Positions 2,213 through 42,140 of a stretch of 64,000 nucleotides of DNA are shown in pieces. Numbering within the stretch: the first letter of the stretch is position 1; each line of letters opens with the position of its first letter. The translations under genes and the position numbers were made by a program. This DNA is from Bacteroidota bacterium (lineage in GTDB: Bacteria; Bacteroidota; Bacteroidia; AKYH767-A; OLB10), in contig JANLZB010000038.1 of the NCBI GenBank assembly GCA_031366005.1, positions 41,208 to 105,207 on the forward strand, read 5' to 3'. Under the pieces are notes generated by a model. It was given only the letters and a program-made list of their open reading frames with translations, was not told where the DNA came from and did not search any database.

Positions 2213-3547
2213 TTAAAACCATAGTTGTGTAATTAAAAAATAAATGTCATAAATACTTAATGAGACAATGAGGCAAATAATAAGTAATGCTGTATTGCAG
2301 ATAAGTTTTGATTTCAGCATAATAAACCCTTGCATAAAAAATTTTATAAATGAGGGCAATGCAGGAAAAATAAAAATGGATTTCATTATGCTGAAATCGC
2401 GGTAACTGTATGAATATTTTATCATGAACAATAAAAAACCTGCTGCAAAAACAAGGTGAATCCAGTCATATTGAGCAGTAATTTTCTCTTTAAAGAAATC
2501 TCTTATAGTTTTCAGCATGCCTGCAATAAAAAGTATTAAGGGCACAATTCCTAAAACAATTAACCACCGGCCGGCATTTAATAAATTTGGATCCATACTT
2601 TTCCAGCTATCGGGGTGCTGATCAAAATGCATGAACATGGTTCTTCCATATAACTGTGACCATAATGAAGTGCGATGCAACTGATAATTATCAATGGTGC
2701 TCACAATAAATGGTTCCCTGATCATATCGAAATAGCGAAACGTGAAGTATCCATCAACAACAGAAGTAATTCCTGGTCTTCCTGCATAAGTGTGATTGAA
2801 AAATGGTGGTGGAGGATCTTTGCGCAATACCAGCACAAAAGGAGTTCCGTATTTAATATAGTTATGAATGTAACCGGCACCAACAGGTATGATTGCAATA
2901 AAACTTATTACCAGTATTGTTAAAATTTTTATGTAAAGTTTTCTTTCTTCAAAGTGAGAAGCCAATAGTTTTATTGAAAAAATTATAGCGAGTGAAGCAA
3001 TCAAAATAAGCCCCGATCCTTTAATGAGACAGGCAATTATCACAAATACACACAACAAAATTCCCAGCCGAAATTTCTTCTCACTGAAAAACCTGTCTGC
3101 AAAATAAATGGTGAGAATGCCTGCTAATATTTCAGGAGTATCATTGGTAGCTTGAATATTAATTCCCGTAAGGCATGGATTAAAAGCAAGAAATGCAAAG
3201 GCTGCAATTTTAATTTTTTCTGAAAACGGTTGCCTCGCAATAAATTTCCATAGATAAAAAAGTATAAAAAAACTCAAAACAAAATTGAACATTTGCATAC
3301 AGAGAATGCTGTCCATCCGGTTATCAATACCCAGCATCTGAATAATTCCTGCATTGATGATATAATAAAGTTTTGGCTGAAAGCACTCCCAGCAATTATC
3401 CTTATCCGGCAGCGCATTGTGATTAATAATCCACTCAACCACTTCTACATGAGGGTCGTTTGCTTCATAATTAAGGAGAGATAAAATAAAACGCAGGCTG
3501 AGGGAAAGGATAAAAATGGAAAGGATTAATATTCTATTTCGCGACAT
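2213..3547 (-). CDS. polytopic integral membrane protein, possibly a GT-C-fold (ArnT/PMT-like) glycosyltransferase
   Basis: 444 aa with more than 10 predicted transmembrane segments and a loop carrying acidic residues after TM1. The family assignment is tentative. Confidence 0.3.
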   Translation of the reverse strand: MSRNRILILSIFILSLSLRFILSLLNYEANDPHVEVVEWIINHNALPDKDNCWECFQPKLYYIINAGIIQMLGIDNRMDSILCMQMFNFVLSFFILFYLWKFIARQPFSEKIKIAAFAFLAFNPCLTGINIQATNDTPEILAGILTIYFADRFFSEKKFRLGILLCVFVIIACLIKGSGLILIASLAIIFSIKLLASHFEERKLYIKILTILVISFIAIIPVGAGYIHNYIKYGTPFVLVLRKDPPPPFFNHTYAGRPGITSVVDGYFTFRYFDMIREPFIVSTIDNYQLHRTSLWSQLYGRTMFMHFDQHPDSWKSMDPNLLNAGRWLIVLGIVPLILFIAGMLKTIRDFFKEKITAQYDWIHLVFAAGFLLFMIKYSYSYRDFSIMKSIFIFPALPSFIKFFMQGFIMLKSKLICNTALLIICLIVSLSIYDIYFLITQLWF

Positions 3548-3697
3548 ATGCGCAAAAGTAAATTCTATGAAGGATTAAGAATAGAATTTCAACCCCATAC
3601 GTCTGCAGAAAATGGTAGAATATTACTACTCCTCACTATATTTGTCGAACAACATACTATTTTAGTGAGTATAAAGTTATTATATTTTATTTAGCAA

Positions 3698-6382: not shown

Positions 6383-6398
6383 TTCCTTAATTTTTTTC

Positions 6399-7268
6399 AT
6401 GAGCCTCTCTAATATATTTCTGCAACCTTATCCGTTGTGGGATAACAATTGGCGTAAGTCTTACACCATTACAGGTATTTCAATATTCGTTTTTTTATTT
6501 CTTTTCGTCTTTCGTCCCTTTGGACTTATTCAGTTAGAAATCCCTTCTGAAGCCAATGTTTTAATTGGATATGTATTGGTGAGTTTGCTGATAATTTTAT
6601 TACTCCAGTTTGTTTTGCCATTTTTTATTTCTTCTGTTTTTAATGAGGATCACTGGAAAGTTTACAAAGAGATTCTTTACGCACTTATTATTGTTTTGTG
6701 TAATGGAATTGGCATAATGATATATTCAGCAGCGCTTGGTTTATTTCCGGTAACCCTAAGTTCATTCACCTGGTTTGAAATAGTTACAATGCTGGTTGCC
6801 CTCTTTCCAATTACATTAATTGTTTTATTGAAACAAAATTATCTGTTTAGAAAAAATGTTAAAGAAGGATTTGCACTCACAGAAAAACTTTATCATAAAA
6901 CACGTATTTCTCCATTTGAGCAAACCCTCGTACATTTAACTTCAGAACAACAGAATGATAATTTAACAGTGGAAGCTGCTGATATTTATTACATATCCGG
7001 TGCTGACAATTATATTGAAGTACATATAAAACAAAATAATCTGCTGAAAAAAATTTTTCTTCGTAGCACACTAAAAAATGCGCAGAATACCCTGAAACGT
7101 TTCTCCAATTTTTACCGTTGTCACCGTACCTATATTGTTAATCTTGATAAAGTAGAATCAGTTACCGGTAATTCGCAGGGATACAAATTGGTTTTAGCTG
7201 ATACCGAAAAGTCTATCCCCGTTTCGCGAACACTTACAAGAGAAGTTACGCAGCGGTTGAGTATTTGA
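6399..7268 (+). CDS. membrane-anchored LytTR-family DNA-binding regulator
   Basis: 289 aa. The N-terminal ~150 aa hold 4-5 transmembrane helices. The C-terminal LytTR domain reads DIYYISGADNYIEVHIKQNNLLKKIFLRSTLKNAQNTL...FYRCHRTYIVNLDKVESV. Confidence 0.7.
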   Translation: MSLSNIFLQPYPLWDNNWRKSYTITGISIFVFLFLFVFRPFGLIQLEIPSEANVLIGYVLVSLLIILLLQFVLPFFISSVFNEDHWKVYKEILYALIIVLCNGIGIMIYSAALGLFPVTLSSFTWFEIVTMLVALFPITLIVLLKQNYLFRKNVKEGFALTEKLYHKTRISPFEQTLVHLTSEQQNDNLTVEAADIYYISGADNYIEVHIKQNNLLKKIFLRSTLKNAQNTLKRFSNFYRCHRTYIVNLDKVESVTGNSQGYKLVLADTEKSIPVSRTLTREVTQRLSI

Positions 7269-7271
7269 AAT

Positions 7272-7850
7272 TCAGGTTGAAAATTCTTTTTGTATTAATT
7301 CTTCAATCACTTTTGGGAAATATTCCATTTCCAATTTATGGATTTTTTCAGCGACAAGTGCTGGTGAGTCGGTTGGATTAATACTTGTCTTTATTTGTTG
7401 AACAATATCTCCCTTATCATAATGTTCATTCACATGATGGATCGTAATTCCTGTTTCTGTTTCTCCTGCGTTGCAAACAGCTTCATGCACTTTCATTCCA
7501 TACATTCCTTTACCACCATATTTTGGTAACAGTGCAGGATGGATATTGATGATTTTATTTTTATACGCATTAATAATTTCTACATGCATGAGCTTTAAAT
7601 AACCAGCTAACACGATAAATTGAATTTGATAAGATTGTAGAATTTCTAAAAGTTTCGTTGGTGCCTGAAGTAATTCTTTTGAAAGATACACTGATGGAAT
7701 ATAATGCTTTTCTGCAACAATAAAAACTCCTGCTTCTTTGCGAGCTGATAGAATACAACCCACTTTAATCGAAGGATGATTATTAAAGTAAGTACAAATA
7801 TTATCAGCATTGCTGCCTTTGCCCGAAGCAAAAATGGCGATGTTAAACAT
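7272..7850 (-). CDS. purN: phosphoribosylglycinamide formyltransferase
   Basis: 192 aa. The N-terminal MFNIAIFASGKGSNADNI and the ...IINIHPALLPKYGG... motif are typical of the PurN formyltransferase fold. Confidence 0.85.
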   Translation of the reverse strand: MFNIAIFASGKGSNADNICTYFNNHPSIKVGCILSARKEAGVFIVAEKHYIPSVYLSKELLQAPTKLLEILQSYQIQFIVLAGYLKLMHVEIINAYKNKIINIHPALLPKYGGKGMYGMKVHEAVCNAGETETGITIHHVNEHYDKGDIVQQIKTSINPTDSPALVAEKIHKLEMEYFPKVIEELIQKEFST

Positions 7851-7856
7851 ACATTA

Positions 7857-8300
7857 TCACCGCATTAAAAAATTATCTCGGCCTGAACGCGGAGGATGTT
7901 TTTGCCAGTCAGTATTAATTACATCGCTTATCATTTTTTTTAGCTTCACAAATTCTGTTGGCTTTTTAATGTAAATGTTTGCACCATAACGAAAGGAGGC
8001 ATCAACATCTTTATCGACACCTGAAGTGGAATAGATCACTATGGGAATATCCTTAAACTTTTTATTGCCACGGATTTTTTCAAGACATTCAGTACCTGTT
8101 TTTCCCGGCATATTCATATCCAAAAAAATTACATCCGGTAAATTCGAATCATGATTGTGCAGATACTCCCAGAGGTCATCACCATTAAAAACAATGTGCA
8201 ATTGAATATCTGGCCTTATTTCTTTTACGGCATCCTTAAAGAAAAAGCAATCATCTTCATCATCATCAGCAAGTAGTATATGCATTTGCTTCTCAGCCAT
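7857..8300 (-). CDS. single-domain response regulator (CheY-like receiver)
   Basis: 147 aa. The receiver motif ILLADDDEDD, the phospho-acceptor context FLDMNMPGKTG and a lysine in KKP are present. It lies 6 bp upstream of purN on the same strand. Confidence 0.8.
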   Translation of the reverse strand: MAEKQMHILLADDDEDDCFFFKDAVKEIRPDIQLHIVFNGDDLWEYLHNHDSNLPDVIFLDMNMPGKTGTECLEKIRGNKKFKDIPIVIYSTSGVDKDVDASFRYGANIYIKKPTEFVKLKKMISDVINTDWQKHPPRSGRDNFLMR

Positions 8301-13390: not shown

Positions 13391-14122
13391 CTACTCAAAA
13401 CCATCCACAGATGCTTTGATCACAATACGTTTGAGTGAATCAGTAACATCCATAGATTTAACTTCATCACCGGCATCATTGAGTAAAAAAATCTTTTCCG
13501 TTTTGCGTGCATGTTCATTTAAATCTCCATGCTGTGGAATTACCTGCACTCTTCCGCTTCCGCCTTTAGGTTTATTACCAATGAAAACACGAACCGGTTT
13601 ATCTGCATTATTGTGGAATGTAAATTTAACCTGGTTCAACATATCTTCTTTTGCTCTTGCAATCATTAAACTATCATTCATACCCGGCTTTTGTACTTTG
13701 CGTTGCTGAATTTTATTAAGAGGAAGTCCGCGTTCATTACAATAAGCCTGCAAGCCAATTAAAGTTGCGTGTCCATTTACAAAAACCTTGTTACGGACAT
13801 AAGAGTCAAGTAATGTGATAATTTCCATTTGCGGATAGAGACACGCATACTGCACTTGCAAAGTCGGGAATGATCCGCTGAATTTTATTTTCCCATTATC
13901 AGGTATTAATATCAGCAGTGCTTCTGATTTGCTGTCAAGATTACGCAGCGAATAAAAATTGCCCTTTGCACCACTTTTTACATTGCAAATAAATTGTGGT
14001 ACTCCATTATTATAAACCGTATCGTTTTTCAAAGTAACATCATACTTTTCCTGCGCGTTGGAAAAAGTAATATGGAATATCAATGTTAATACAAGAATAA
14101 TTTTAATATGTGTGTTTATCAT
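13391..14122 (-). CDS. secreted hypothetical protein
   Basis: ORF with a signal peptide (MINTHIKIILVLTLIFHITFSNAQ) when started at the internal Met. No recognisable domain. Part of a same-strand cluster with GT4 and the DUF2807 gene. Confidence 0.35.
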   Translation of the reverse strand: MINTHIKIILVLTLIFHITFSNAQEKYDVTLKNDTVYNNGVPQFICNVKSGAKGNFYSLRNLDSKSEALLILIPDNGKIKFSGSFPTLQVQYACLYPQMEIITLLDSYVRNKVFVNGHATLIGLQAYCNERGLPLNKIQQRKVQKPGMNDSLMIARAKEDMLNQVKFTFHNNADKPVRVFIGNKPKGGSGRVQVIPQHGDLNEHARKTEKIFLLNDAGDEVKSMDVTDSLKRIVIKASVDGFE

Positions 14123-14123
14123 T

Positions 14124-14831
14124 CTATTCAGTCTTTTGAACATTTCCGCTGCCTGTTATATCTGATTTAATATGCGGATTTCCTTTGTAACGAATATTAC
14201 CACTGCCGGTTAAATTTGCTTTTAGCTCATCAGATGCGTTAACCTCTGCATCACCTGAACCGTTTATTTCAATGCTGGCATTGGCACTTTCTAATTCATA
14301 ACCATGAAAATCACCCGAACCATTTATGCTGATCTTTTGCTGATCACATTTTCCATTGAGAAAAATTTCACCCGAACCATTAATAGCACTTTCAATATCT
14401 AATATTTTTCCGCTTAGCTTTATTTTTCCTGAACCATTTAATTCCAGTTCAAGTTGTTTTTCATGAAGGTTGTTAATTCCCGAAATTTCACCGGAGCCAT
14501 TTAGTGTAATCGCACTTATTTTAGGAAGCGAAATAACAATCTGAACAGGTTTATTAATGTTAAAATTTTTATCCGATTCAATGGTGAGCTCACCACTACT
14601 CACTTTAGTTTTAATTAATTCTAAAATATTTTTCTGTGCAGCAATTACACAACTGAAACTGTCAGCTTCCACAAAATTGACAATGGCAGGAATGGAAAGT
14701 TCAATTTCCGTGGCATCAGTAATACTTCGGGTTTCGGTAACAATTGCTCCTTCTCCCTTTATTGATCTCTTGCAACTGCAAAACATCACAAAAAAAATTA
14801 AGAGCCAGTAACTATAAAGAAAATTTTTCAT
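14124..14831 (-). CDS. lipoprotein with DUF2807 (putative adhesin head, GIN-type) repeats
   Basis: 235 aa. The signal plus lipobox is FCSC. The repeated motifs GSG(E/D)I...NGSG... are typical of the DUF2807/DUF4097 beta-helical family. Confidence 0.5.
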   Translation of the reverse strand: MKNFLYSYWLLIFFVMFCSCKRSIKGEGAIVTETRSITDATEIELSIPAIVNFVEADSFSCVIAAQKNILELIKTKVSSGELTIESDKNFNINKPVQIVISLPKISAITLNGSGEISGINNLHEKQLELELNGSGKIKLSGKILDIESAINGSGEIFLNGKCDQQKISINGSGDFHGYELESANASIEINGSGDAEVNASDELKANLTGSGNIRYKGNPHIKSDITGSGNVQKTE

Positions 14832-16581: not shown

Positions 16582-17994
16582 TTAAATATCCAGCAAAGAA
16601 GCATAATGTTTTGTAAAGTTTCCACCAAATCGCAGATCATTATATTCATCCTGCTGTGGCAGATAAAAAATTTTATAATCGTGATCGTGAAAAAATTTTA
16701 GTTCCTTTTCGGGAAGATAATAACGATAGATAATATTCGTGTTATCTCTTCCTTGTTGTTGCACTAAAATATTTGCCATCCACCAACCAGCAATAATGAG
16801 TGTTTTGTTTTTGATGATTGATGCTTTTTGAATCACTTCATCAGCATAATGCATTTGTTGTTTTCTTTTTAGACAATCTGCAATAACAGGCCCTTGTAAA
16901 AAATCAAATGAAACAGATTGATTGGAAATTGTTTTTTGAATTGATAATGGTGAAGCAGCAGCAGCGCGGTAAGGATCATAAAGATTGATACCAAAGAAAA
17001 ATGAACTGACAATCATTGCCAATGAAAATAATTTAAACTGGTTCTGCGAAAGCGTGATTGCAAATATTAAAATAACAAAAGGTATCAGTGGAATCATAAA
17101 TGCTGCTTTGAGCGGAAGCTTTATAAATGCTGTTGTATAAATCAATACAACAATCAAACTCATGTAAATTATTTTTTTGTGTTGAGAAAAAATTTCTTTT
17201 AAAATAATTTTTCGAAATGAAAACAATACTGCTGCCATTACGATTATAAAACCCAATGTTCCCCACACAGCAAATGTTCCTTTGTAAAAATTTTTAGCAA
17301 ATGATGGCAATGGAAAATGTTCATAATACTGAAAGAAACTTAGTCCGTACACTTTGATAACCGGGAGAAATAACAAGAGTGAAAAAAGCAAGGTTGAAAT
17401 TGTGAGTTTAACAATGTTTTTTATTGCGTGATTGTCTCGGAGAAATTTATTACCAGTATTTTGGCCAATACACCAGGTAAGATAAATAAAAGGAATCAGC
17501 ATTGCTCCGGAGGTAATTCTGCAGCCAACAGCAAGCCCGATAAACATTCCGGCAATCCAATAATTATTGCAAACAATAAAATAAAAGCTCATCATTAAAA
17601 ATGATAAAGCCCATGTGTAATCCAGTGCGTTGGTACTATTGACATAAACCACAGGAACAAAAGCCAGTGCAACACCTACCCATAAATAATTTGTTATTTG
17701 AAGTTTTCTTAATGTCAGCATAAAAAAAGCAATGGCTGCTGTGCTTAATAAAACAGTGAGGAAATTATAACTTGAGGCATCACGGTTCCAAAACATCACA
17801 TACGTTAATTCCTGCAATGGATGACCTGGTAATCTGGAAACTTCGTATTGACCTGTGTCGGCAATTCGTTCCGTTACTAATCGCATTGCCCATGCATCTT
17901 CCTCTGCACCATAACCCGCATTTAAAAATGGTAAGCGTGAAAGAAAAATCAGCAACAGCACCCACAAAAAATTACGATGCCCTGCTGATGTCAT
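16582..17994 (-). CDS. polytopic integral membrane protein, possibly a GT-C-fold glycosyltransferase (second copy of this type in the window)
   Basis: 470 aa with about 12 transmembrane segments. A loop GYGAEEDAW after TM1 resembles the D/E motif of ArnT/PMT-type transferases. The assignment is tentative. Confidence 0.3.
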   Translation of the reverse strand: MTSAGHRNFLWVLLLIFLSRLPFLNAGYGAEEDAWAMRLVTERIADTGQYEVSRLPGHPLQELTYVMFWNRDASSYNFLTVLLSTAAIAFFMLTLRKLQITNYLWVGVALAFVPVVYVNSTNALDYTWALSFLMMSFYFIVCNNYWIAGMFIGLAVGCRITSGAMLIPFIYLTWCIGQNTGNKFLRDNHAIKNIVKLTISTLLFSLLLFLPVIKVYGLSFFQYYEHFPLPSFAKNFYKGTFAVWGTLGFIIVMAAVLFSFRKIILKEIFSQHKKIIYMSLIVVLIYTTAFIKLPLKAAFMIPLIPFVILIFAITLSQNQFKLFSLAMIVSSFFFGINLYDPYRAAAASPLSIQKTISNQSVSFDFLQGPVIADCLKRKQQMHYADEVIQKASIIKNKTLIIAGWWMANILVQQQGRDNTNIIYRYYLPEKELKFFHDHDYKIFYLPQQDEYNDLRFGGNFTKHYASLLDI

Positions 17995-34469: not shown

Positions 34470-34588
34470 TACATAGCAAAGTAAATTAAAAGAAAAAACA
34501 TCTGTACTTATTTATCAAAGCCTTTTATCTTCGAAAAAAATGTAATGGTTAATTATTTCAGTTTTATTGACACTCAAAAGCTTGATAA

Positions 34589-34882
34589 AAAGCTGTCTGC
34601 GGGAAATTTTCCCTTCAGCAATTTTTATTCTGGGATGTTGATATAGAAAAAATTGATCTGAAAAAAAATCAACGATATGTAATAGAAAGAGTTCTTTCAC
34701 GGGAATTCACTGAAGATTTTTATATGCTGTTGAAAATTTATACTGAGGATGAAATAAAAACCGCACTTCGCAAAAGCAGAGAATTAGATCCTAAAACAAT
34801 TAATTTTTGCAGCCATTTTTTTAAGCTCCCAAAATCTGAAATGAATGCTTCATCTTTCTACCGAGATAATAGAGTTCATTAA
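34589..34882 (+). pseudogene. remnant of a small conserved Bacteroidota ORF (LFWDxDIxKID ... LDxKT(I/L)NFCSxxFxxPKSE family) lacking a start codon in frame
   Basis: The open frame reads ...FLFWDVDIEKIDLKKNQRYVIERVLSREFTEDFYMLLKIYTEDEIKTALRKSRELDPKTINFCSHFFKLPKSEMN..., which I recognise as a recurring small Bacteroidota protein family. No ATG/GTG/TTG occurs upstream of FLFWD in this frame. An ATG-initiated 33-codon ORF in the +1 frame (34545..34646) ends inside it, suggesting a frameshift. Confidence 0.3.
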
Positions 34883-34981
34883 AAAGACTTGTGTTTGAAT
34901 TCGAACTATTTTTCCTTTCTATCAAGCGAAAATTTAACATCTTTACTCCGAAGTATTAATACCATCCAATAAATATTTTAA

Positions 34982-36520
34982 ATGCTAATAAAAACTTTCG
35001 GTAGTGCTGTGTATGGAATCAATGCGACAACCATAACGGTTGAAGTAAATGTGAGCCAGGGAATTAAATTCTGGCTGGTGGGTTTACCTGATAACGCTGT
35101 GAAAGAAGCGCAACATCGCATTGAAGCTGCTTTAAAAAACACTGGTTATAAAATGCCGGGACATAAAGTGGTGGTGAACATGGCTCCTGCTGATATCCGT
35201 AAAGAAGGTTCTGCTTTTGATCTAACTATGGCAATGGGAATTTTATGTGCATCAGAACAGATATTCGCTCCTGAAATTGATCAGTATATAATTATGGGAG
35301 AGCTTTCGCTTGATGGCGGATTGCAACCAATCAAAGGCGCTTTGCCAATTGCAATACAGGCACGCAAAGAAAATTTCAAAGGTTTTATTTTACCAAAAGC
35401 AAATGCACGTGAAGCCGCAATCGTAAGTGAACTTGATGTATATGGTGTAGATAATATGCGTGAAGTGATTGATTTTTTTATCGGGGAAGGTTCGCTGCAA
35501 CCGACAATTGTAAATACACGTGAAGAATTTTTAATGAAACAAAATCAAAGTGAAATTGATTTTTCGGATGTGAAGGGGCAGGAAAATATTAAACGTGCGT
35601 TAGAGATTGCTGCCTCTGGCGGACACAATGTAATATTGATCGGACCACCCGGTGCAGGTAAGACCATGCTTGCAAAACGATTACCAACCATTCTTCCTCC
35701 ACTCACTTTGCATGAAGCATTGGAAACAACAAAGATTCATTCTGTGGCAGGCAAGATGGGAAAAGATGCAGGATTAATTTCTATCCGTCCTTTCCGGTCA
35801 CCACATCATACCATCAGTGATGTAGCATTAGTAGGCGGTGGAGGCAATCCTCAACCCGGAGAAATTTCTTTGGCGCATAATGGAGTTTTATTTTTAGATG
35901 AGTTGCCTGAGTTCAAACGCACTGTGCTGGAGGTAATGCGTCAGCCGTTGGAAGAAAGAAAAGTTACCATTGCTCGTGCAAAAGCTTCTATTGAATATCC
36001 GGCAAGTTTTATGTTGGTGTCATCAATGAACCCTTGTCCTTGCGGATATTACAATCATCCGGAAAAAGAATGTGTGTGTGCTCCCGGTGTTGTACAGAAA
36101 TATCTCAACAAAATTTCAGGACCACTGTTGGATAGAATTGATTTGCATGTGGAGGTAACTCCCGTATCATTTACTGAATTAACTAAAGAAAGACTTTCTG
36201 AAAAAAGTGAAGATGTAAGACAACGTGTAGTGAAAGCAAGAGAAATACAGGAAGAACGATTTAAAGAAAATGAAAATGTGTATTGCAACGCACAAATGAG
36301 CAGCAAGCAACTGCGCACCATTTGTAAAATAACAGATGAAGGACAGCAGCTTTTAAAAACTGCAATGGATCGTTTGGGTTTATCAGCACGTGCATTTGAC
36401 CGTATTTTAAAAGTAGCAAGAACCATTGCTGATCTTGCTGACAGCGCAGATATTAAAACAGAACATCTTGCGGAAGCAATTCAATACAGGAGTTTAGATA
36501 GAGAAGGATGGGCGGGGTAA
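34982..36520 (+). CDS. YifB/ComM-family Mg-chelatase-like AAA+ ATPase
   Basis: 512 aa. The N-terminal Lon-like domain reads [22 protein letters not shown]. The Walker A is [14 protein letters not shown]-terminal Mg_chelatase_C domain is present. Confidence 0.85.
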
Positions 36521-36638
36521 GATTTTACTAATTCTAAATTAATATGATTGCAATTATTATAAGACGTGGGTAGTAAACAACTGGAAAGGAAGAAAAAACA
36601 TTAGAAAAGAAGAAGAGATAAAATTATTGAATGCTCAT

Positions 36639-36932
36639 TTAATAATTTATCAATTTCCCGTTTTTGATATAATAAATGACGACTGTGTTTTTAATAATTT
36701 TAAAGGCAAATATCCATGTCTTATCAAAAGTTGCACATTTCAGGGTTTCAACTTTCCACTTTGGGTATTTGCAAATGGTGTAGGCATTTGGGGCGTGCGA
36801 GATTGAATCTGCAAAGTTTAAAAGTTTATCAATGTACTTCAAAGCAGTATCAGGCATTTTAATAGTTTCTGAAATGTAATCAGCAATCGAAGTAATTGCA
36901 TTTTCAGCCGAAGGCTTTAAAACAGCCTTCAT
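36639..36932 (-). CDS. type II toxin, RelE/ParE family
   Basis: 97 aa. ...KTWIFAFKIIKNTVVIYYIKNGK fits the RelE/ParE C-terminal beta-sheet signature. Four-base overlap with the upstream small ORF. Confidence 0.5.
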   Translation of the reverse strand: MKAVLKPSAENAITSIADYISETIKMPDTALKYIDKLLNFADSISHAPNAYTICKYPKWKVETLKCATFDKTWIFAFKIIKNTVVIYYIKNGKLINY

Positions 36933-37126
36933 TTTTTGCTTGCCTTTTTCGCTGAATATCTTTTTTTAACTTCTTCTTTCAGTTTTTTACCAAACTGTTC
37001 CAAAGAAATAGAATCGCTCAAATCATCTTCATCAACAATAGAGGCAATTGTTTTCGGAAAGGTTTTTACTAAAGAAAGTATTGCTTGCCCTTGTTCGGTA
37101 TTTTCGTTGATATTTACTTGTGTCAT
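36929..37126 (-). CDS. putative antitoxin partner of the RelE/ParE-like toxin
   Basis: 65-aa hydrophilic ORF whose stop overlaps the toxin start. Organised like a typical type II TA operon. Confidence 0.4.
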   Translation of the reverse strand: MTQVNINENTEQGQAILSLVKTFPKTIASIVDEDDLSDSISLEQFGKKLKEEVKKRYSAKKASKK

Positions 37127-37191
37127 GATAAAATTTTATGCTCTAAAATTACAAATAAAATGTTTCCTTCTTCTATCGTTGGAGATAGCTA

Positions 37192-37345
37192 TCACTCCAC
37201 TTCCACCACCAAATCATCCGCTTCCACAAGTGTCCCTTCACACAACACTAAATTTTTTATTTTAAAATCATTGGAAGCTGTGAAGGTTGTTTCCATCTTC
37301 ATGGCTTCAATGGTAAAGTGAGGTGTATTGCGTTTTACCTGTTGA
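37192..37345 (-). pseudogene. detached duplicate of the 3' end (last ~51 codons plus stop) of the pyruvate carboxylase gene
   Basis: About 88% nucleotide identity to 38545..38700. Its minus-strand translation is IGQQVKRNTPHFTIEAMKMETTFTASNDFKIKNLVLCEGTLVEADDLVVEVE*. The genuine end of pyc is VGQQVKRNTPLFTIEAMKMETTITASNDFKIKNLVLSEGTLVEADDLVVEVE*. Substitutions are mostly synonymous. Confidence 0.75.
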
Positions 37346-37580
37346 CCGATTATTGAATTTGTTTTATCTGGCTACTTCAGGATGTTTAATAAGTTTGTGT
37401 TCTATAAAACAAACTTTCATCTATTCAATGAGTTAGTGTTTACATTATCATACGTGATAACATCAATGAAAAACATTCGTATAATTGCAGCAACAGTACT
37501 CACCACACTTCCCATAGGAACAGTGTCCCAGGGTGAGTCTTCTGCTTTTATACCTATCTGTAAACATTTTATTTTATAGT

Positions 37581-38489
37581 ATGAAGTATAACAAACCTCC
37601 CATAGCAATACCTCAGCAAATTGAACAGTTAAAACGCAGAGGCCTTGTTATTTCAGATGAGCAGGTTGCATCTCATTTTTTACAAAATGTAAGTTACTAT
37701 CGTTTGGCAGGTTACTGGTGGCCCATGCAGTTGGATAAAACATTGCACACTTTTAAGCCTAACAGCACTTTTGAAAATGTAATAGCCATTTACAATTTTG
37801 ATCGTGAATTACGAATCCTTCTTTTTGATGTGATAGAACGAATCGAAATTGCTTTCCGCACTAAATTAATTTATCACCTGTCGCGTGAAATTTCACCATG
37901 GTGGTTTGAATACGCTGGTCATTTCAAAAACGCAGTAGAACATACCGAAACATTATTAGCAATTGACAGAGAACTCAAACAGACCAAAGAGGTTTTTATA
38001 AAACAACATTATATTAAATACCATACCGATACACGCAGACCTCCAGCCTGGAAAACACTTGAGATAGCCAGCTTTGGTAATCTTTCAAAACTTTATGGCA
38101 ATCTGCTGCCGTCCATTAAATCAAAAGATTTGATTGCAAAGGATTTTGGAACTGTTAATCACACCTTTTTACCAAGCTGGTTGCAAAGCATTACACAGAT
38201 AAGAAACATTTGCGCGCACCATGGAAGACTATGGAATAAGAATTTGCCGGGGAGACCTAAACTCCTTCCTAAACCTCCGAATGTGTGGATTGCTAATGTG
38301 CCTGCGGTTACAGAGCACCATCTGTTGTATGTGCATTTGTGTTGCATGAAATACCTGATGAATGTGGTAAATCCCAACAGTCATTTTACACAAATGTTAA
38401 TGTCTATGATGATGAAGTACCCAAACATTGATCCTAATGCTTTGGGCATAAAACCTGATTGGCAAAACGAACCACTTTGGGAAATATAA
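37581..38489 (+). CDS. abortive-infection phage-resistance protein, Abi_2 (AbiD/AbiF) family
   Basis: The start was taken at the internal MKYNKPP. The motifs KPPIAIPQQIEQLKRRGLVISDE...NVSYYRLAGYW, ...FDRELRILLFDVIERIEIAFRT and QIRNICAHHGRLWNKNLP are the hallmark Abi_2 motifs. Confidence 0.85.
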   Translation: MKYNKPPIAIPQQIEQLKRRGLVISDEQVASHFLQNVSYYRLAGYWWPMQLDKTLHTFKPNSTFENVIAIYNFDRELRILLFDVIERIEIAFRTKLIYHLSREISPWWFEYAGHFKNAVEHTETLLAIDRELKQTKEVFIKQHYIKYHTDTRRPPAWKTLEIASFGNLSKLYGNLLPSIKSKDLIAKDFGTVNHTFLPSWLQSITQIRNICAHHGRLWNKNLPGRPKLLPKPPNVWIANVPAVTEHHLLYVHLCCMKYLMNVVNPNSHFTQMLMSMMMKYPNIDPNALGIKPDWQNEPLWEI

Positions 38490-38544
38490 CAATTAACAGT
38501 TATAAATTTTTCCTTAGTGTTTCTAAGAAACGCCTTTGTAATTT

Positions 38545-41500
38545 TTACTCCACCTCCACCACCAAATCATCCGCCTCCACTAAAGTCCCTTCACTCAACA
38601 CTAAATTTTTTATTTTAAAATCATTGGACGCAGTGATGGTTGTTTCCATCTTCATTGCTTCGATGGTAAACAATGGAGTGTTGCGTTTTACTTGTTGACC
38701 AACTTTCACAAAAATTTTACTTAGCAAACCTTGCAATGGTGTTCCGATTTGTTTTTCGTTACTTGCTTTTGCATGTGAGATTTTTTTAACGTTTGCTTTT
38801 TTGTCTATTACATCCACGCTGCGTGTTTGTCCGTTCAAACGGAAGTAAACAGTGCGATGTCCGTTTTCATCCACATCACCAACATAAAGCAAACGAATGA
38901 TGATTGTTTTTCCTTTTGCAATCTCAACTAAAATTTCTTCGTTGTTTTTCATGCCGTAAAAAAATGCAGGGGTGGGCAATGAACTCACATCACCATATTT
39001 TTTTACGAAAGCATAATACTCTTCAAAAACTTTTGGATAAAATTTCCATGATAAAAAAGCTAAAAATGTGCATTGTGAATCAAATTTATTTTGGAATGCT
39101 GCAAACTCTTTTTCAAAATCAACAGGTTGTAAATGTGCGTTGGGTAAATCAGTGTAGGGCTTTTCATCTTTTAAAATGATGCGTTGCAATTCAGCCGGAA
39201 ATCCTCCGTGCGGTTGTCCTAAATCTCCTTTGAAAAAACTTTTTACTGATTCAGGAAAACTAATGTTATCTCCTTTGGTAAAAATATCTTCCTTGCTCAA
39301 ATTATTACTCACCATGTACAAAGCCATATCACCCACCACTTTTGAACTCGGTGTAACTTTCACCACATCACCAAACAATTCGTTCACATCAGCGTAAGTT
39401 TTTTTTATCTCCACCATTTTATCTCCCAACCCAAGTGAAGTCGCTTGTGGTTTGAGATTTGAATATTGTCCTCCAGGAATTTCGTGTTGATAAACATCAG
39501 CAGTACCAGCCATCATTCCGGACTCAAAAGGATAATACCATTCGCGAACTGTTTCCCAATAATTGGAATGTTCGTTGAGCGTGTCAATATTAAAATCAAC
39601 TTCGTGAGGTGTGTTGCGCAATGCTTCCACCATCGAATTAAAATTTGGTTGCGATGTTAAGCCACTCATCGAAGCAAGAGCAACATCCACCACATCAACA
39701 CCTGCTTCAATTGCTTTTAAATAAGTTGCAGATTGAATGGAAGAAGTATCGTGCGTGTGCAAATGAATCGGAATATCAATTACTTTTTTTAATTCAGCGA
39801 TGAGCAATGAAGCGGAATAGGGTTTCAACAAACCAGCCATATCTTTTATGCAAAGAATATGTGCGCCCATATTCTCCAGTTCTTTTGCAAGGTCAAGGTA
39901 ATATTGAAGCGTGTATTTCTTTTTGCTCTTATCTAAAATATCTCCGGTGTAACTAATGCATGCTTCTGCAATTCCTCCTGTTGAATTTCGCACTGCATCA
40001 ATACTCACCTTCATGCTCTTAGTCCAGTTGAGCGAATCAAAAATGCGAAACACATCCACACCATTCTTCCAACTCTCTTCAATAAATTTTTCAACGAGAT
40101 TATTTGGATACGCTGCATAACCAATTGCATTGTTACCACGAATCAACATCTGCAATAAAATATTTGGAATGGCTTCGCGCAATTGTTGCAAACGTTTCCA
40201 CGGACTCTCATGTAAAAAACGCAACGCAACATCAAACGTTGCTCCGCCCCAAACTTCCATACTGAATGTTTGCGGATGTTGCAATGCAAACGAATGTGCA
40301 ACACGCATTAAGTCAACCGTACGAACGCGGGTTGCCAATAAACTTTGGTGTGCATCACGAAAAGTGCAATCAGTAAACTGGACTTGCTTTTGTTCTTTCA
40401 ACCATTTTGCAAATTTTTCAGGACCGAGTTCAGTGAGTTTTTGTTTGGTCCCTGATTGGAGAGATTGCTTCGTGCCTCGCAATGACGAATGGTTTGGAAT
40501 TCGTGGTTGACTAAAAATTTTTGATGAATCAATTTTAGTTACATCAGGATTTCCGTTTACTAAAACATCAGCGAGATAGTTCAACACTTTCGTTCCACTG
40601 TCTTGTTTTATTTTGAAATGAAACAGTTCAGGATATTGCTCAATAAATTTTACGGTTGCTCCACCTTCACGGAAAACAGGATGCGTTATTACATTTTCTA
40701 AAAAAGGAATATTTGTTTTTACTCCACGAATACGAAACTCTGTCAGCGTGCGATACATGCGTTTACTTGCTCCACTCAACGTGCGGCCTTGTGCAGTAAC
40801 TTTTGCCAACATCGAATCAAAAAACGGAGACACCTTTACTCCTTGATAACTACTTCCTTCATCAATACGAATTCCATAACCTCCTGCATTTCGATAGGCA
40901 ATGAGTGTTCCGTAATCAGGTTTGAAATTATTGGAAGGGTCTTCCGTTGTGATGCGACATTGAATAGCAACACCACGACATTGCACTGCATCCTGATTTT
41001 TAATTTCAATTTTTGGAGAATCCAAACGCTCACCATCCGCAATTAAAATTTGATTGCGGACAATATCAATTCCTGTGATTTGTTCTGTTACCGTATGTTC
41101 AACTTGTATGCGCGGATTTACTTCAATGAAAAAAATATTTTCTTTTTCGTCCGTTAAAAATTCAACTGTGCCTGCATTGTTATAACCCACCTGCTTTGCA
41201 ATTCGCAAAGCGTAATCATACAACCTGTCACGAGTAGTTTGTTTCAGCCACGGAGCGGGAGCAATCTCTACCACCTTTTGAAATCTTCGTTGCACCGAGC
41301 AATCACGCTCAAACAAGTGAACAATGTTTCCGTGTTGGTCGCCAAGAATTTGTACTTCGATGTGTTTTGGATTATCAACAAATTTCTCAATGAAAATAGT
41401 ATCGTCACCAAAAGCATTTCCTGCTTCGCGTTTTGCTTCGTTAAATTCTTTTTCTAATTCTTCAATTTTTCTAATCACACGCATACCACGACCACCACCA

Positions 41501-41994
41501 CCTGCACTTGCTTTAAAAATTATGGGTAAACCAATTCGCTTTGCTTCTTCAATGGCAACAGTTGCATCAGTCAATTTTATTTTATTGTCTTCAATAACAG
41601 GAACACCGCAATTACGAGCAACAATTTTACTTGCTACTTTATCTCCGAGTTGCTGCATCACTTCAGGCGAAGGACCAACGAAAATAATTCCTTCTTCACG
41701 GCAACGTGTTGCAAAATTTACATTCTCCGAAAGGAATCCATAGCCGGGATGAATGGCGTTCACATCGTTCTCTTTTGCAACCGCAATTATTTCTTCAATG
41801 TCAAGATACGGTTTCAGCGGCTCATTGTCTTTACCGATTTGATACGCTTCATCAGCTTTATAGCGATGCAATGAATAACGGTCTTCATAAGTATAAATGG
41901 CAACGGTGCGTATCTGCAATTCCGATGCAGCACGTAATGCACGAATGGCAATTTCGCCACGATTGGCTACTAATAATTTATTGATTTTTTGCAT
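38545..41994 (-). CDS. pyc: pyruvate carboxylase (single-chain biotin carboxylase + carboxyltransferase + biotinyl domain)
   Basis: 1149 aa. The N-terminus is a biotin carboxylase (MQKINKLLVANRGEIAIRALRA...). The central region is an HMGL-like/PYC carboxyltransferase. The C-terminal biotinyl motif is EAMKME. Confidence 0.9.
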   Translation of the reverse strand: MQKINKLLVANRGEIAIRALRAASELQIRTVAIYTYEDRYSLHRYKADEAYQIGKDNEPLKPYLDIEEIIAVAKENDVNAIHPGYGFLSENVNFATRCREEGIIFVGPSPEVMQQLGDKVASKIVARNCGVPVIEDNKIKLTDATVAIEEAKRIGLPIIFKASAGGGGRGMRVIRKIEELEKEFNEAKREAGNAFGDDTIFIEKFVDNPKHIEVQILGDQHGNIVHLFERDCSVQRRFQKVVEIAPAPWLKQTTRDRLYDYALRIAKQVGYNNAGTVEFLTDEKENIFFIEVNPRIQVEHTVTEQITGIDIVRNQILIADGERLDSPKIEIKNQDAVQCRGVAIQCRITTEDPSNNFKPDYGTLIAYRNAGGYGIRIDEGSSYQGVKVSPFFDSMLAKVTAQGRTLSGASKRMYRTLTEFRIRGVKTNIPFLENVITHPVFREGGATVKFIEQYPELFHFKIKQDSGTKVLNYLADVLVNGNPDVTKIDSSKIFSQPRIPNHSSLRGTKQSLQSGTKQKLTELGPEKFAKWLKEQKQVQFTDCTFRDAHQSLLATRVRTVDLMRVAHSFALQHPQTFSMEVWGGATFDVALRFLHESPWKRLQQLREAIPNILLQMLIRGNNAIGYAAYPNNLVEKFIEESWKNGVDVFRIFDSLNWTKSMKVSIDAVRNSTGGIAEACISYTGDILDKSKKKYTLQYYLDLAKELENMGAHILCIKDMAGLLKPYSASLLIAELKKVIDIPIHLHTHDTSSIQSATYLKAIEAGVDVVDVALASMSGLTSQPNFNSMVEALRNTPHEVDFNIDTLNEHSNYWETVREWYYPFESGMMAGTADVYQHEIPGGQYSNLKPQATSLGLGDKMVEIKKTYADVNELFGDVVKVTPSSKVVGDMALYMVSNNLSKEDIFTKGDNISFPESVKSFFKGDLGQPHGGFPAELQRIILKDEKPYTDLPNAHLQPVDFEKEFAAFQNKFDSQCTFLAFLSWKFYPKVFEEYYAFVKKYGDVSSLPTPAFFYGMKNNEEILVEIAKGKTIIIRLLYVGDVDENGHRTVYFRLNGQTRSVDVIDKKANVKKISHAKASNEKQIGTPLQGLLSKIFVKVGQQVKRNTPLFTIEAMKMETTITASNDFKIKNLVLSEGTLVEADDLVVEVE

Positions 41995-42070: not shown

Positions 42071-42140
42071 CGTCATGTTGAACTTGTTTCAGCATCTGTA
42101 CAAATAAATAGAGAGATGCTGAAACAAGTCCAGCATGACG
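42071..42140. repeat. hairpin repeat element, copy 1 (27-bp arms CGTCATGTTGAACTTGTTTCAGCATCT / AGATGCTGAAACAAGTCCAGCATGACG, 16-nt loop)
   Basis: Read directly. It lies in the divergent region between pyc and the 42234 gene. It is about 85-90% identical to copy 2 at 43483..43542, loop tail ATAGAG included. Confidence 0.8.

Follow-up and report, generated by a model that had tools for sequence, protein, structure and literature searches.

Probable foreign insertion of a putative AbiF RNA toxin-antitoxin module, with replacement of the pyruvate carboxylase gene tail, in a Bacteroidota bacterium

The cryptic prophage e14 of Escherichia coli uses the 3' end of icd, and on its excision, recombination between the two tails leaves a chimeric functional gene (PMC13626634). 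In strain MG1655, the icd tail and icdC align over 165 nt at 92.7% identity; 9 of the differing codons are synonymous and 2 nonsynonymous, and dN/dS is 0.044. The element spans 15.2 kb and encodes an integrase, an excisionase, and phage genes, with the defense genes lit and mcrA near its ends. A different set of described systems, the AbiF toxins, is preceded by leader RNAs that terminate transcription and neutralize the toxin (PMC12373285, where the PbAbiF-ncRNA structure 8VZ6 is cited). Here, a locus that resembles both was analyzed in a 64,000-nt stretch of DNA (the window) from a Bacteroidota bacterium (GCA_031366005.1, contig JANLZB010000038.1, positions 41,208 to 105,207, forward strand). 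Its central features are a pyruvate carboxylase gene (pyc) and two copies of the end of that gene, as follows.

38545..41994, minus strand: pyc, intact pyruvate carboxylase gene, 1149 aa, with the biotinyl domain complete at the C-terminus (ORF and Pfam)
38547..38700, minus strand: repeat copy 1, the working pyc tail, consisting of the last 51 codons with the AMKM biotinylation motif included (alignment)
37192..37347, minus strand: repeat copy 2, a displaced pyc tail relic (pseudogene fragment) of 51 codons with TGA as its stop (alignment and translation)

Pfam domains PYC_OADA, CPSase_L_D2, and Biotin_carb_N/C were assigned to pyc, with Biotin_lipoyl at residues 1082 to 1147. Positions 37194 to 37347 and 38547 to 38700 gave an ungapped alignment of 154 nt at 88% identity. 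A direct repeat of the pyc tail, as claimed in the first-pass annotation, is thus present, with the relic ending 2 nt beyond the 37345 given there; counted with their stop codons, the repeat units are 37192-37347 and 38545-38700. This pair is the sole direct repeat of at least 60 nt, spaced by no more than 15 kb, in the window. Over 51 residues, the translated relic differs from the pyc protein end by three changes (L->H, I->F, and S->C), one fewer than had been stated earlier, and it stops at TGA where intact pyc stops at TAA. Because in-frame stops lie immediately upstream and a usable start is absent, the relic is a pseudogene fragment.

The differences between the two tails are strongly biased toward synonymous codons (12 synonymous and 3 nonsynonymous; dN/dS of 0.086 by NG86), in agreement with the earlier claim that the tail diverged as a real gene end under selection. 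Because of this bias, one of the tails appears to have once worked as a gene end in another genome. Read from the codon differences, the data show two tails that evidently diverged as working gene ends in separate genomes before coming together, which would mean that one of them was acquired horizontally together with the AbiF module described below, on a single piece of DNA. Copy 1 is 90 to 91% identical to the pyc tails of three close relatives (L001, L073, and L081), and both window tails fall inside genus-level pyc diversity (85 to 91% identity); a site-by-site comparison of the tails does not identify the native copy. The three nonsynonymous changes unique to the relic hit residues that are invariant across all four intact tails, and these changes, and no others, look like decay after displacement. 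The longest identical block common to both copies is 33 nt (37243-37275). At the 5' edge of the repeat, the first 8 nt (GGTCAACA) match, and one mismatch separates them from 11 further identical nt, which is too short for a diagnosis; since the edge has just 8 identical nt, a convincing crossover core is absent. The equivalent edge in e14 has 11 identical nt. The junction of the relic with non-pyc DNA (37347/37348) has 8 nt in common with pyc.

Between the two copies, the following features were recognized.

37348..37479, no strand assigned: inner edge of the insert, an AT-rich segment (~26% GC) that separates the relic from the AbiF promoter (composition)
37480..37558, plus strand: AbiF promoter -7 box (TATAATTG, 37480-37487) and conserved leader RNA (conservation and consensus fold)
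37581..38489, plus strand: gene of the 302-aa AbiF/Abi_2 HEPN toxin, transcribed convergently to pyc (Pfam, PADLOC, and PDB 8VZ6)
38517..38533, plus strand: terminator-like hairpin between the convergent AbiF and pyc stops (7-bp stem, 3-nt loop, and T-rich tail)

The toxin matched Pfam Abi_2 (PF07751; E of 1.6e-55) over profile positions 1 to 184 of 184, PADLOC AbiD (4.9e-77), and chain A of PDB 8VZ6 (PbAbiF; 2.6e-55, residues 4 to 301). Its Rx4H residues are conserved, with R208-N-I-C-A-H213 aligned to R210...H215 of PbAbiF. In PMC12373285, which cites Zilberzwige-Tal 2025, R210 and H215 are described as catalytic in PbAbiF, and a variant with both R210A and H215A is reported to be inactive. 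A spacer of 55 nt (25% GC) separates the AbiF and pyc stop codons. On the other side of the toxin gene, the segment at 37348..37479 showed no similarity to any fetched locus and held no ORF with a Pfam family match.

The leader RNA (37488-37558) folds as an interrupted hairpin of 17 bp whose 12-nt loop is invariant, and a U-run follows. Its block is 81 to 89% identical among AbiF loci, compared with just 71 to 75% for their coding sequences, and its MFE z-score is -3.7. Covariation, with both partners changed, is seen at 7 of the 17 pairs; bases pair in 96.7% of cells, versus 26 to 45% when the pairing is slid. Each close AbiF homologue examined had a match to the leader model (R1) in its upstream region, including three outside the model-building set. 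Rfam searches of 36500-38800 (E<=1) matched no family, abiF motif RF03085 included, and nine Abi loci searched at the gathering score gave no match; the leader is thus analogous in position and form to that motif and not a recognizable member of RF03085. Like AbiF-RCd22 of C. difficile and PbAbiF-ncRNA of Prevotellaceae (8VZ6), the window locus has an Abi_2 HEPN protein that keeps Rx4H, and, as in these systems, the toxin is preceded by its own promoter and a same-strand structured RNA with a U-run (PMC12373285). The window leader differs in being a single hairpin without an Rfam abiF match, whereas RCd22 has two abiF motifs. The leader is a probable RNA antitoxin or attenuator of AbiF and, by analogy with those systems, may both terminate most transcription and neutralize the toxin. 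Because promoter, leader RNA, and HEPN toxin are all present, the data show the 1.2-kb insert to be a putative self-contained AbiF RNA toxin-antitoxin (TA) defense module. The 1.2 kb had been described in the first-pass annotation as carrying a single full-length Abi_2 gene; the full-length defense gene stands, and the description is extended by the conserved leader RNA.

The insert lies in a gap between pyc and comM, where the remaining features are found.

36592..38546, no strand assigned: variable TA/defense islet from pyc to comM (synteny with L073)
36929..37126, minus strand: 65-aa ORF, putative antitoxin, with a 4-nt overlap with the next ORF (operon layout)
36639..36932, minus strand: 97-aa putative ParE/RelE-like toxin (sub-threshold Pfam match)
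34982..36520, plus strand: comM/yifB, Mg-chelatase-like AAA ATPase gene, which bounds the islet on its conserved right-hand side (Pfam and NCBIfam TIGR00368)

Two overlapping ORFs do adjoin the relic, as had been noted for a ParE/RelE-type TA pair, while the assignment itself is weaker than claimed: the 97-aa ORF matched Pfam ParE_toxin at an E of 3.3e-4 and 21.6 bits, below the 23-bit cutoff. Among seven homologues of this ORF, a precomputed PF05016 match exists for one, and JGI names another ParE. The 65-aa ORF matched no family in Pfam, PADLOC, or NCBIfam; NCBIfam, PADLOC, and PDB profile and sequence searches with the pair were empty, and an AlphaFold model was of low confidence (pLDDT of 50). 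Beside comM, a DUF6922 gene in the window is frameshifted, and AbiEii is deleted.

L073 is the sole relative found with both the pyc and comM flanks, and its site holds other cargo. Synteny with L073 ends at the pyc stop codon and restarts at window position 36591, with 3.2 kb of other DNA between in L073; the ComM proteins are 100% identical. The order in L073 is pyc, RhuM, a 45-nt pyc-tail relic, VapB/PIN, MNT/HEPN modules, and comM. Different cassettes thus occupy the space between the same flanks, without mobility genes, in the two genomes (window and L073), and the pyc-comM gap is a small variable TA/defense islet. Deletional decay visibly acts there: in L073, the relic has lost sequence from both ends and an MNT gene is truncated, and the window has the DUF6922 frameshift and AbiEii loss. 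The genes downstream of pyc differ among the close relatives L001, L081, and L073.

Taken together, the locus very probably represents a foreign insertion of the AbiF RNA-TA module with replacement of the pyc tail. Incoming DNA carrying a pyc tail and the AbiF module would have undergone recombination within the final 51 codons of the resident pyc. The gene would thereby have retained an intact, biotinylatable C-terminus, and its former tail would have moved 1.35 kb downstream, where it would now be decaying. How this DNA arrived is less certain. As with e14 and phage 21, the target is a metabolic housekeeping gene, at its 3' end, and the element would bring a working version of the final ~50 codons. 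The native tail, once displaced, would persist as a pseudogene at the far end, like icdC; the divergence is synonymous biased in both cases (dN/dS of 0.044 for icd/icdC versus 0.086 for pyc), and in both systems the repeat begins abruptly within the gene and ends at the stop codon. Because the repeat geometry matches that of icd-e14-icdC, integration with an element-supplied gene end is plausible. The target had earlier been called unusual for being a protein gene, which was overstated, since e14 uses the icd 3' end likewise (PMC13626634). The pyc locus differs from e14 in that its repeats enclose 1.2 kb, with no recombinase and just the AbiF module between them, and in that no excision, empty site, or parent element was seen. 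No report of pyc as an attachment site was present among the top 10 literature matches, and we know of none.

Recombinase families (integrase, excisionase, and transposase) were absent from 36 of the 42 window ORFs of at least 150 aa, which bears out the earlier statement that no integrase is present, and none was found in the L073 islet or the L161 insert described below. Strains with an empty site were not recovered by the genome scan, the metagenome scan, exact-protein look-ups, or a C-terminal protein search, in a lineage that is very poorly sampled. Likewise, no integrase-bearing Abi cassette was found beside a pyc tail, and no pyc tail or attP was found in viral contigs, phages, or plasmids. 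Outside the lineage, no second tail was found at the fetched pyc 3' ends (downstream flank of up to 10 kb), which is weak evidence, the data being sparse. Since no empty site, integrase-bearing cassette, or parent was found, we infer, rather than demonstrate, site-specific integration. The first-pass reading of such an integration with a replacement 3' end therefore stands as to layout, which is that of icd-e14-icdC, and lacks the integrase, the empty site, and the parent. In its full form, the explanation is of the e14/icd type: an integrative element whose attachment site carries a replacement gene end would have integrated at pyc, within the small pyc-comM islet where TA and defense modules would turn over, and later deletions would have shrunk it to its addictive defense cargo. 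This is the mechanism we favor, though tentatively, at slightly less than even odds for the full statement.

Two other kinds of known elements share part of this layout. Cis-mobilizable elements (CIMEs) are what is left of integrative elements once the integrase is lost, still bounded by att sites. The locus here is likewise a short insert with direct repeats of the target gene end, without recombination or transfer genes, and with other cargo in a relative. By definition, a CIME requires a cognate ICE or IME that uses the same att site and is able to mobilize it. At pyc, no cognate integrase-bearing element was found (in fetched pyc 3' ends, viral contigs, phages, and plasmids), and the repeats are long and diverged, in contrast to short conserved att cores. 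Minimal mobile elements, or defense hotspots flanked by core genes, resemble the locus in that pyc and comM flank varying whole-gene cassettes without mobility genes; they differ in their clean replacement by flank recombination, which would not be expected to leave a second gene tail within the islet, and the comparison here covers two genomes.

Repeats of 150 to 400 nt, with 85 to 93% identity, around one or two genes recur at unrelated targets. At L161, the repeat is the tail of an 804-aa gene and encloses AbiF and MerT; at L073, it comprises the MNT promoter and 5' coding sequence and encloses PIN/VapB; at L067, it lies at an internal site rather than a gene end and encloses AbiEi/AbiEii; and at L185, it is intergenic and encloses Peptidase_C92. 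TA or Abi cargo was present in four of the five repeat-flanked cases, which were found opportunistically in ~2.5 Mb with no matched control for cargo type. Relative to the repeats, the AbiF module has opposite orientations in L161 and the window, so it is passive cargo. The repeats in the MNT 5' region of L073, at L067, and at L185 are not at gene ends, which argues against an att-site model; because long diverged repeats flank TA/Abi cargo away from gene ends, integrase-free recombination is a serious rival. According to this rival, a fragment or circle of sister-species DNA with a genuine pyc tail beside the AbiF module would have entered the resident tail by RecA-driven homology, duplicating it, either by a Campbell-type single crossover or by a double crossover of an already repeat-flanked unit. 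Such repeats normally permit pop-out, and addictive TA cargo would resist loss, so that scars would persist around TA/Abi genes. The lack of a recombinase nearby, the position of both tails within genus-level diversity, as expected for the genuine pyc end of a relative, the 33-nt perfect block, and the similar architecture at the four other loci are all consistent with this route. However, 12% divergence makes a poor RecA substrate, an initial illegitimate event is still required for a tail-plus-cargo unit with an abrupt 5' edge, and no circular or alternatively located copy was seen. In addition, the repeat extends exactly to the stop codon, as in integrase-driven e14, the five cases are opportunistic, and we know of no natural transformation in the source lineage, which also counts against it. 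Integrase-free insertion is possible and, on balance, somewhat doubtful.

The remaining explanations fare less well. If a linear fragment from a donor with a native pyc-AbiF arrangement had recombined by homology within pyc on one side only, its far end would have been joined illegitimately 154 nt before the recipient stop, with a chance doubling of the tail; the abrupt, featureless junction at 37347/37348, the absence of a recombinase, and the differing genes downstream of pyc in L001, L081, and L073, which point to a rearrangement-prone pyc end, would fit. Yet the genome and metagenome scans gave 160 pyc loci, none with an adjoining Abi gene, and the accident would have to recur, since L073 has its own relic and L161 has a similar layout. 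One-sided illegitimate joins, moreover, usually delete rather than duplicate recipient DNA, making this route improbable. Local tandem duplication of the pyc end, with the Abi gene inserted between copies that then diverged in place, offers the simplest origin for a direct repeat, but decay in place would affect all codon positions evenly, and 12 of the 15 differing codons are synonymous (dN/dS of 0.086); this synonymous bias essentially refutes it, leaving it a negligible chance. A metagenome assembly chimera that joined two co-occurring strains at their common pyc tail deserves consideration, as the source is a MAG contig and the same strain's Logan contigs, assembled independently, end precisely within the 33-nt common block. 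A k-mer switch within that block, however, would yield one hybrid tail, and variants specific to the relic flank the block; the relic junction has just 8 nt in common with pyc; and a displaced pyc-tail fragment lies mid-contig in an independent sister-species assembly (L073, and L184 from another run). For these reasons, a chimera is very unlikely.

With a foreign insertion that replaced the pyc tail thus preferred, the pyc-tail/AbiF locus is a tidy, fairly ordinary footprint of horizontal gene insertion. A broader and rather unlikely proposal is that addictive defense and TA modules such as AbiF spread without a recombinase by "homology hitch-hiking" on short conserved gene segments, in this instance the biotinyl-domain end of pyc. 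If true, a module would enter a homologous segment by homologous recombination and duplicate that segment, and it would be retained because its loss kills the cell. The long diverged repeats around AbiF, AbiE, PIN, and RhuM cargo at four unrelated loci would then be the footprint of this process.

The pyc gene is intact, and its product has a complete C-terminal biotinyl domain. The last 154 nt of the gene (38547-38700) are a direct repeat of 37194-37347, ungapped and 88% identical, and this pair is the sole direct repeat of at least 60 nt within 15 kb across the 64-kb window.

Features of the pyc-comM region of the window
34982-36520, convergent with the two small ORFs that follow: comM/yifB
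36639-36932, minus strand (as pyc): 97-amino-acid (aa) ORF, tentatively labeled ParE
36929-37126, minus strand (as pyc): small ORF downstream of the relic, overlapping the 97-aa ORF
37192-37347, minus strand: displaced pyc tail with its stop codon (the relic)
37480-37558, plus strand: AbiF leader (-7 box, hairpin, and U-run)
37581-38489, plus strand, convergent with pyc: AbiF, a full-length Abi_2 protein (Pfam, PADLOC, and PDB)
38517-38533: terminator-like hairpin within the 55 nt that separate the stop codons of AbiF and pyc
38545-41994, minus strand: pyc (ORF and Pfam)

The alignment confirmed the duplication described in the first-pass annotation, which we treat as real; its coordinates were correct to within 2 nt, and the amino acid differences number three, not four. 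Translated on the minus strand, the relic differs from the final 51 residues encoded by pyc at three positions (L→H, I→F, and S→C), and its stop codon is TGA versus TAA in pyc. Twelve further codons differ only synonymously, and the dN/dS comparison that the annotation had suggested gave a value of 0.086 (NG86). In-frame stops lie immediately upstream of the relic and a usable start is absent; the relic is therefore a pseudogene fragment.

Related loci were collected by scanning species-level genomes with full-length pyc and metagenomes with the pyc C terminus. Only 3 of the 160 loci returned were close (protein identities of 97%, 97%, and 92%; DNA identity of ∼90%). At two of these, L001 and L081, unrelated genes follow pyc and there is no second tail. 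The sister species (L073) shares both flanks: synteny is lost at the pyc stop codon and regained at window position 36591, just before comM, with 3.2 kb of different DNA in the gap.

Features of the pyc-comM gap in L073
RhuM-family gene, convergent with pyc
45-nt pyc-tail fragment
truncated MNT gene
VapB/PIN pair
MNT/HEPN pair

The 45-nt fragment matches its own L073 tail at 40 of 45 positions and the other tails at 43 to 44. In the window and in L073 alike, a pyc-adjacent gene is followed by a displaced pyc tail. The pyc-comM gap is therefore, in these two genomes, a small variable TA/defense islet. Neither a second pyc tail nor an Abi gene beside pyc was found at the other pyc loci (the former at loci with a fetched 3′ end, within as much as 10 kb of downstream flank); among the loci examined, use of pyc as an attachment site is thus not widespread.

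A strain with an empty site (pyc, the TA genes, and comM in direct succession) was sought in the genome and metagenome scans, by querying for identical copies of both TA proteins and of ComM, and by a C-terminal protein search, and none was recovered. Identical proteins came only from the same strain (L178/L179, 100% identical) and from that of L073 (L181/L184). At the 90% level, pyc forms a cluster of one, and the protein collection contained no closer pyc C-terminal fragments. For a parent element, the pyc tail and AbiF protein were searched against viral contigs, the pyc tail against phages, and the whole cassette against plasmids; only host-like biotin-carrier matches or distant Abi genes were obtained. 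Neither a pyc-tail-bearing attP nor the integrase-bearing cassette beside a pyc tail that the annotation had suggested looking for was found in these viral contigs, phages, or plasmids.

Logan contigs assembled independently from the same strain, with 100% identity to the window, end exactly within the only long block common to both tail copies (33 nt, 37243-37275), which makes the repeat a hazard for assembly. A chimera formed through shared k-mers, however, predicts one hybrid tail, and relic-specific variants are present on either side of the shared block. The junction at the relic end (37347/37348) has only 8 nt in common with pyc, and a displaced pyc-tail fragment lies within the contig of L073 and likewise in L184, from another run. 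An assembly chimera was rejected on these grounds and is very improbable. Local duplication with divergence in place fares no better. The five tails (working, relic, L001, L073, and L081) are roughly equidistant (85 to 91% identity), and a site-by-site comparison of the two tails with three relatives revealed no switch point; therefore, neither copy can be assigned as native, nor can a crossover be located. The three nonsynonymous changes of the relic fall on residues invariant across all intact tails and look like decay after displacement. Judging from the codon differences, the much larger synonymous divergence must be older than the juxtaposition of the tails, which rules out in-place duplication as anything beyond a very slight chance. 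On sequence grounds, one tail is foreign, from a genome about as distant as the sister species.

The insert does carry a full-length Abi_2 gene, as first annotated. Its ORF matched Pfam Abi_2 (E = 1.6e-55), PADLOC AbiD (4.9e-77), and the solved Prevotellaceae AbiF structure, PDB 8VZ6 (2.6e-55, residues 4 to 301), with R208/H213 aligned to the catalytic R210/H215 of 8VZ6. The cassette was compared with nine distinct loci whose AbiF proteins are 74 to 78% identical. A noncoding block of ∼70 nt (37485-37558) is 81 to 89% identical at all nine loci, versus 71 to 75% for the coding sequence. It is preceded by a Bacteroidota-type -7 box (TAnnTTTG; TATAATTG at 37480-37487) and its predicted fold (minimum free energy z-score of −3.7) is an interrupted hairpin of 17 bp that is capped by an invariant loop of 12 nt and precedes a U-run. 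A covariance model built from six copies placed the leader directly upstream of every close AbiF gene, including three outside the model-building set (74 to 84 bits); three distant viral Abi_2 genes gave weak matches at the corresponding upstream position.

AbiF leader homologues at comparison loci
L161, 2517-2594
L164, 7847-7924
L166, 5875-5952
L167, 5859-5936
L170, 5881-5958
L185, 6860-6937
L189, 6879-6954
L191, 6392-6470
L172, 7895-7982 (weak match, distant viral Abi_2 gene)
L175, 7911-7998 (weak match, distant viral Abi_2 gene)
L176, 7106-7194 (weak match, distant viral Abi_2 gene)

Seven of the 17 leader pairs change on both sides, and 96.7% of alignment cells pair, versus 26 to 45% with partner columns slid, in an alignment that had been fitted to the model. 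The window leader had no Rfam match at E ≤ 1, and Rfam gave no leader match at the gathering score in nine Abi loci. AbiF toxins are controlled by an upstream RNA of this kind, which terminates most transcription and binds and neutralizes the toxin, and the PbAbiF-ncRNA complex structure has been solved (PMC12373285). By analogy, the leader probably serves a large clade of Bacteroidota AbiF genes as their RNA antitoxin/attenuator, and by the AbiF literature the insert would be a self-contained RNA toxin-antitoxin defense module, rather than the lone Abi gene originally described.

The surroundings of the module were also examined. The annotation placed a ParE/RelE pair against the relic; two small overlapping ORFs are indeed there, and the ParE label is tentative, as the 97-aa ORF matches Pfam ParE below threshold. 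That ORF had no match in NCBIfam or PADLOC, a profile search against PDB was empty, and its AlphaFold model (pLDDT of 50) was too poor for a fold search; a precomputed PF05016 match exists for 1 of 7 homologues, and JGI gives a second one the name ParE. There are no tRNA genes. The reported lack of an integrase held, with no integrase or transposase family among 36 of the 42 window ORFs of at least 150 aa. Beyond comM lies an AbiE remnant (34545-34900), in which the DUF6922 (AbiEi-like) gene carries a frameshift and all but the final few codons of AbiEii have been deleted; both are intact in L073/L181 and L184 (L181, 5662-6580). Variable TA/defense spots thus occur on both sides of comM. Separately, the divergent intergenic region upstream of pyc contains an inverted repeat (42071-42140; 27-nt arms, 93% complementary, 16-nt spacer), and similar sequence occurs in a relative (L076, 919-986).

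The same procedure was applied to icd and icdC of E. coli K-12, which flank the e14 prophage (for the biology, see PMC13626634, which cites Hill et al. 1989). The two copies have 165 nt in common, 92.7% identical, with nine synonymous and two nonsynonymous codon differences (dN/dS of 0.044); the repeat has an abrupt beginning within icd and extends as far as the stop codon. The two layouts are quantitatively alike; however, e14 has an integrase, and the pyc insert, with just 1.2 kb between its repeats, has none. The 3′ ends of protein genes are thus well known to serve as attachment sites, and describing pyc as an unusual target was an overstatement. The top results of a literature search did not include pyc as an attachment site, and we know of no such report.

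Long diverged repeats were also found at other loci. At L161, which carries an AbiF homologue, a 273-nt direct repeat (2147-2419 and 4712-4984; 93%) corresponds to the 3′-terminal 273 nt of a gene for an 804-aa product of unassigned family and ends 2 nt past the stop codon (13 synonymous and 5 nonsynonymous codon differences; dN/dS of 0.10). It encloses the AbiF module and a MerT-HMA gene, with no integrase in the insert, and next to the relic comes a gene for a rifampin ADP-ribosyltransferase (Arr). This arrangement is that of the window with a different target; the AbiF module is reversed relative to the repeats and is thus passive cargo. Self-comparison of about 2.5 Mb of fetched loci, an opportunistic sample in which cargo type had no control, added further cases. 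In L073, a 385-nt repeat (2348-2735 and 3451-3835; 91 to 93% or, in the wider range, 85 to 93%) comprising the MNT upstream region/promoter and the first ∼200 nt of coding sequence encloses the VapB-like/PIN pair, the left copy being the truncated MNT. In L067, a gammaproteobacterial MAG, a 191-nt repeat (14128-14318 and 16695-16885; 87%) encloses AbiEi/AbiEii, one copy falling in the 3′ part of a gene that encodes 278 aa and ending 43 nt ahead of its stop codon; a HigB/HigA pair lies between this locus and the pyc end. In L185, a 253-nt intergenic repeat (4845-5097 and 6349-6600; 87%) encloses a single Peptidase_C92 gene just upstream of an AbiF module. Other AbiF homologues lack a flanking repeat and are located in type I R-M operons or defense islands.

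Several side observations and discarded candidates came from the same loci. In the type I R-M operons of L164 (5628-10312) and L167 (3842-11274), a close AbiF homologue with its leader separates the methylase gene from the specificity gene. At the AbiF-corA junction of L185 to L188 (∼7001-7909), the left flank holds three different defense-gene sets by sample (helicase/PLD; PIN/methylase/OLD-like; and others). In L007, another Bacteroidia MAG, an IS200-like Y1 transposase gene lies directly downstream of pyc (13474-14566) with 166-nt repeats (83%) of REP/RAYT-type appearance; this pair was set aside as REP-like flanking repeats of a transposase. Also discarded were intergenic repeats (L046, L023, and L119), tandem paralogues (L066), and P1-like C4 RNAs (L176), the last in a viral contig with a distant Abi_2 gene and C4 antisense RNA (Rfam RF01695) at 236-320 and 3997-4082.

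How the module entered pyc can be framed as follows. Incoming DNA carrying a pyc tail and AbiF would have recombined within the last 51 codons of pyc, so that pyc retained a functional end with its AMKM biotinylation motif while the former end was displaced. We tentatively favor site-specific integration of the e14 type, with later deletions paring the element down to its addictive cargo, a reading that falls somewhat short of an even chance. It is favored because the geometry equals that of the proven icd case, because deletional decay is evident in the pyc-comM islet (the trimmed relic and truncated MNT of L073, and the frameshifted DUF6922 and deleted AbiEii beside comM), and because defense genes are typical cargo near the ends of such elements. 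The site-specific integration proposed at the outset is thus supported in its layout; no integrase, empty site, or parent element was found. A serious, if somewhat less probable, competitor is homologous recombination without an integrase, whether Campbell-type or by transfer of a unit already flanked by repeats. This route requires no missing gene, accounts for repeats that are not at gene ends, and explains why addictive cargo is so frequent, because such cargo resists pop-out. Homology on one side with an illegitimate join on the other is unlikely; it, local duplication, and a chimera are all less likely than the e14-like and integrase-free routes. Overall, the original observation was confirmed and its interpretation partly supported.

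The insertion belongs to a familiar type of event, of which it is a new example by virtue of its target gene and very small cargo; it does not represent a novel type of system. It provides a clean, datable example of a single predicted anti-phage module wired into a chromosome with an essential-type metabolic gene undamaged; the incoming DNA supplies its own copy of the gene end. With this locus, pyc joins the list of protein genes used as insertion targets with tail replacement, and the cargo of such insertions can consist of just one RNA-toxin pair. The conserved leader, an RNA unrecognized by Rfam and one of the two most useful by-products of this work, would carry the AbiF RNA-antitoxin principle over to a large group of environmental Bacteroidota AbiF genes. 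The other by-product is a hint that insertion without a recombinase may leave TA/Abi modules flanked by long diverged repeats; if the integrase-free route is true, it would help to explain the wide scatter of TA/Abi modules outside recognizable mobile elements.
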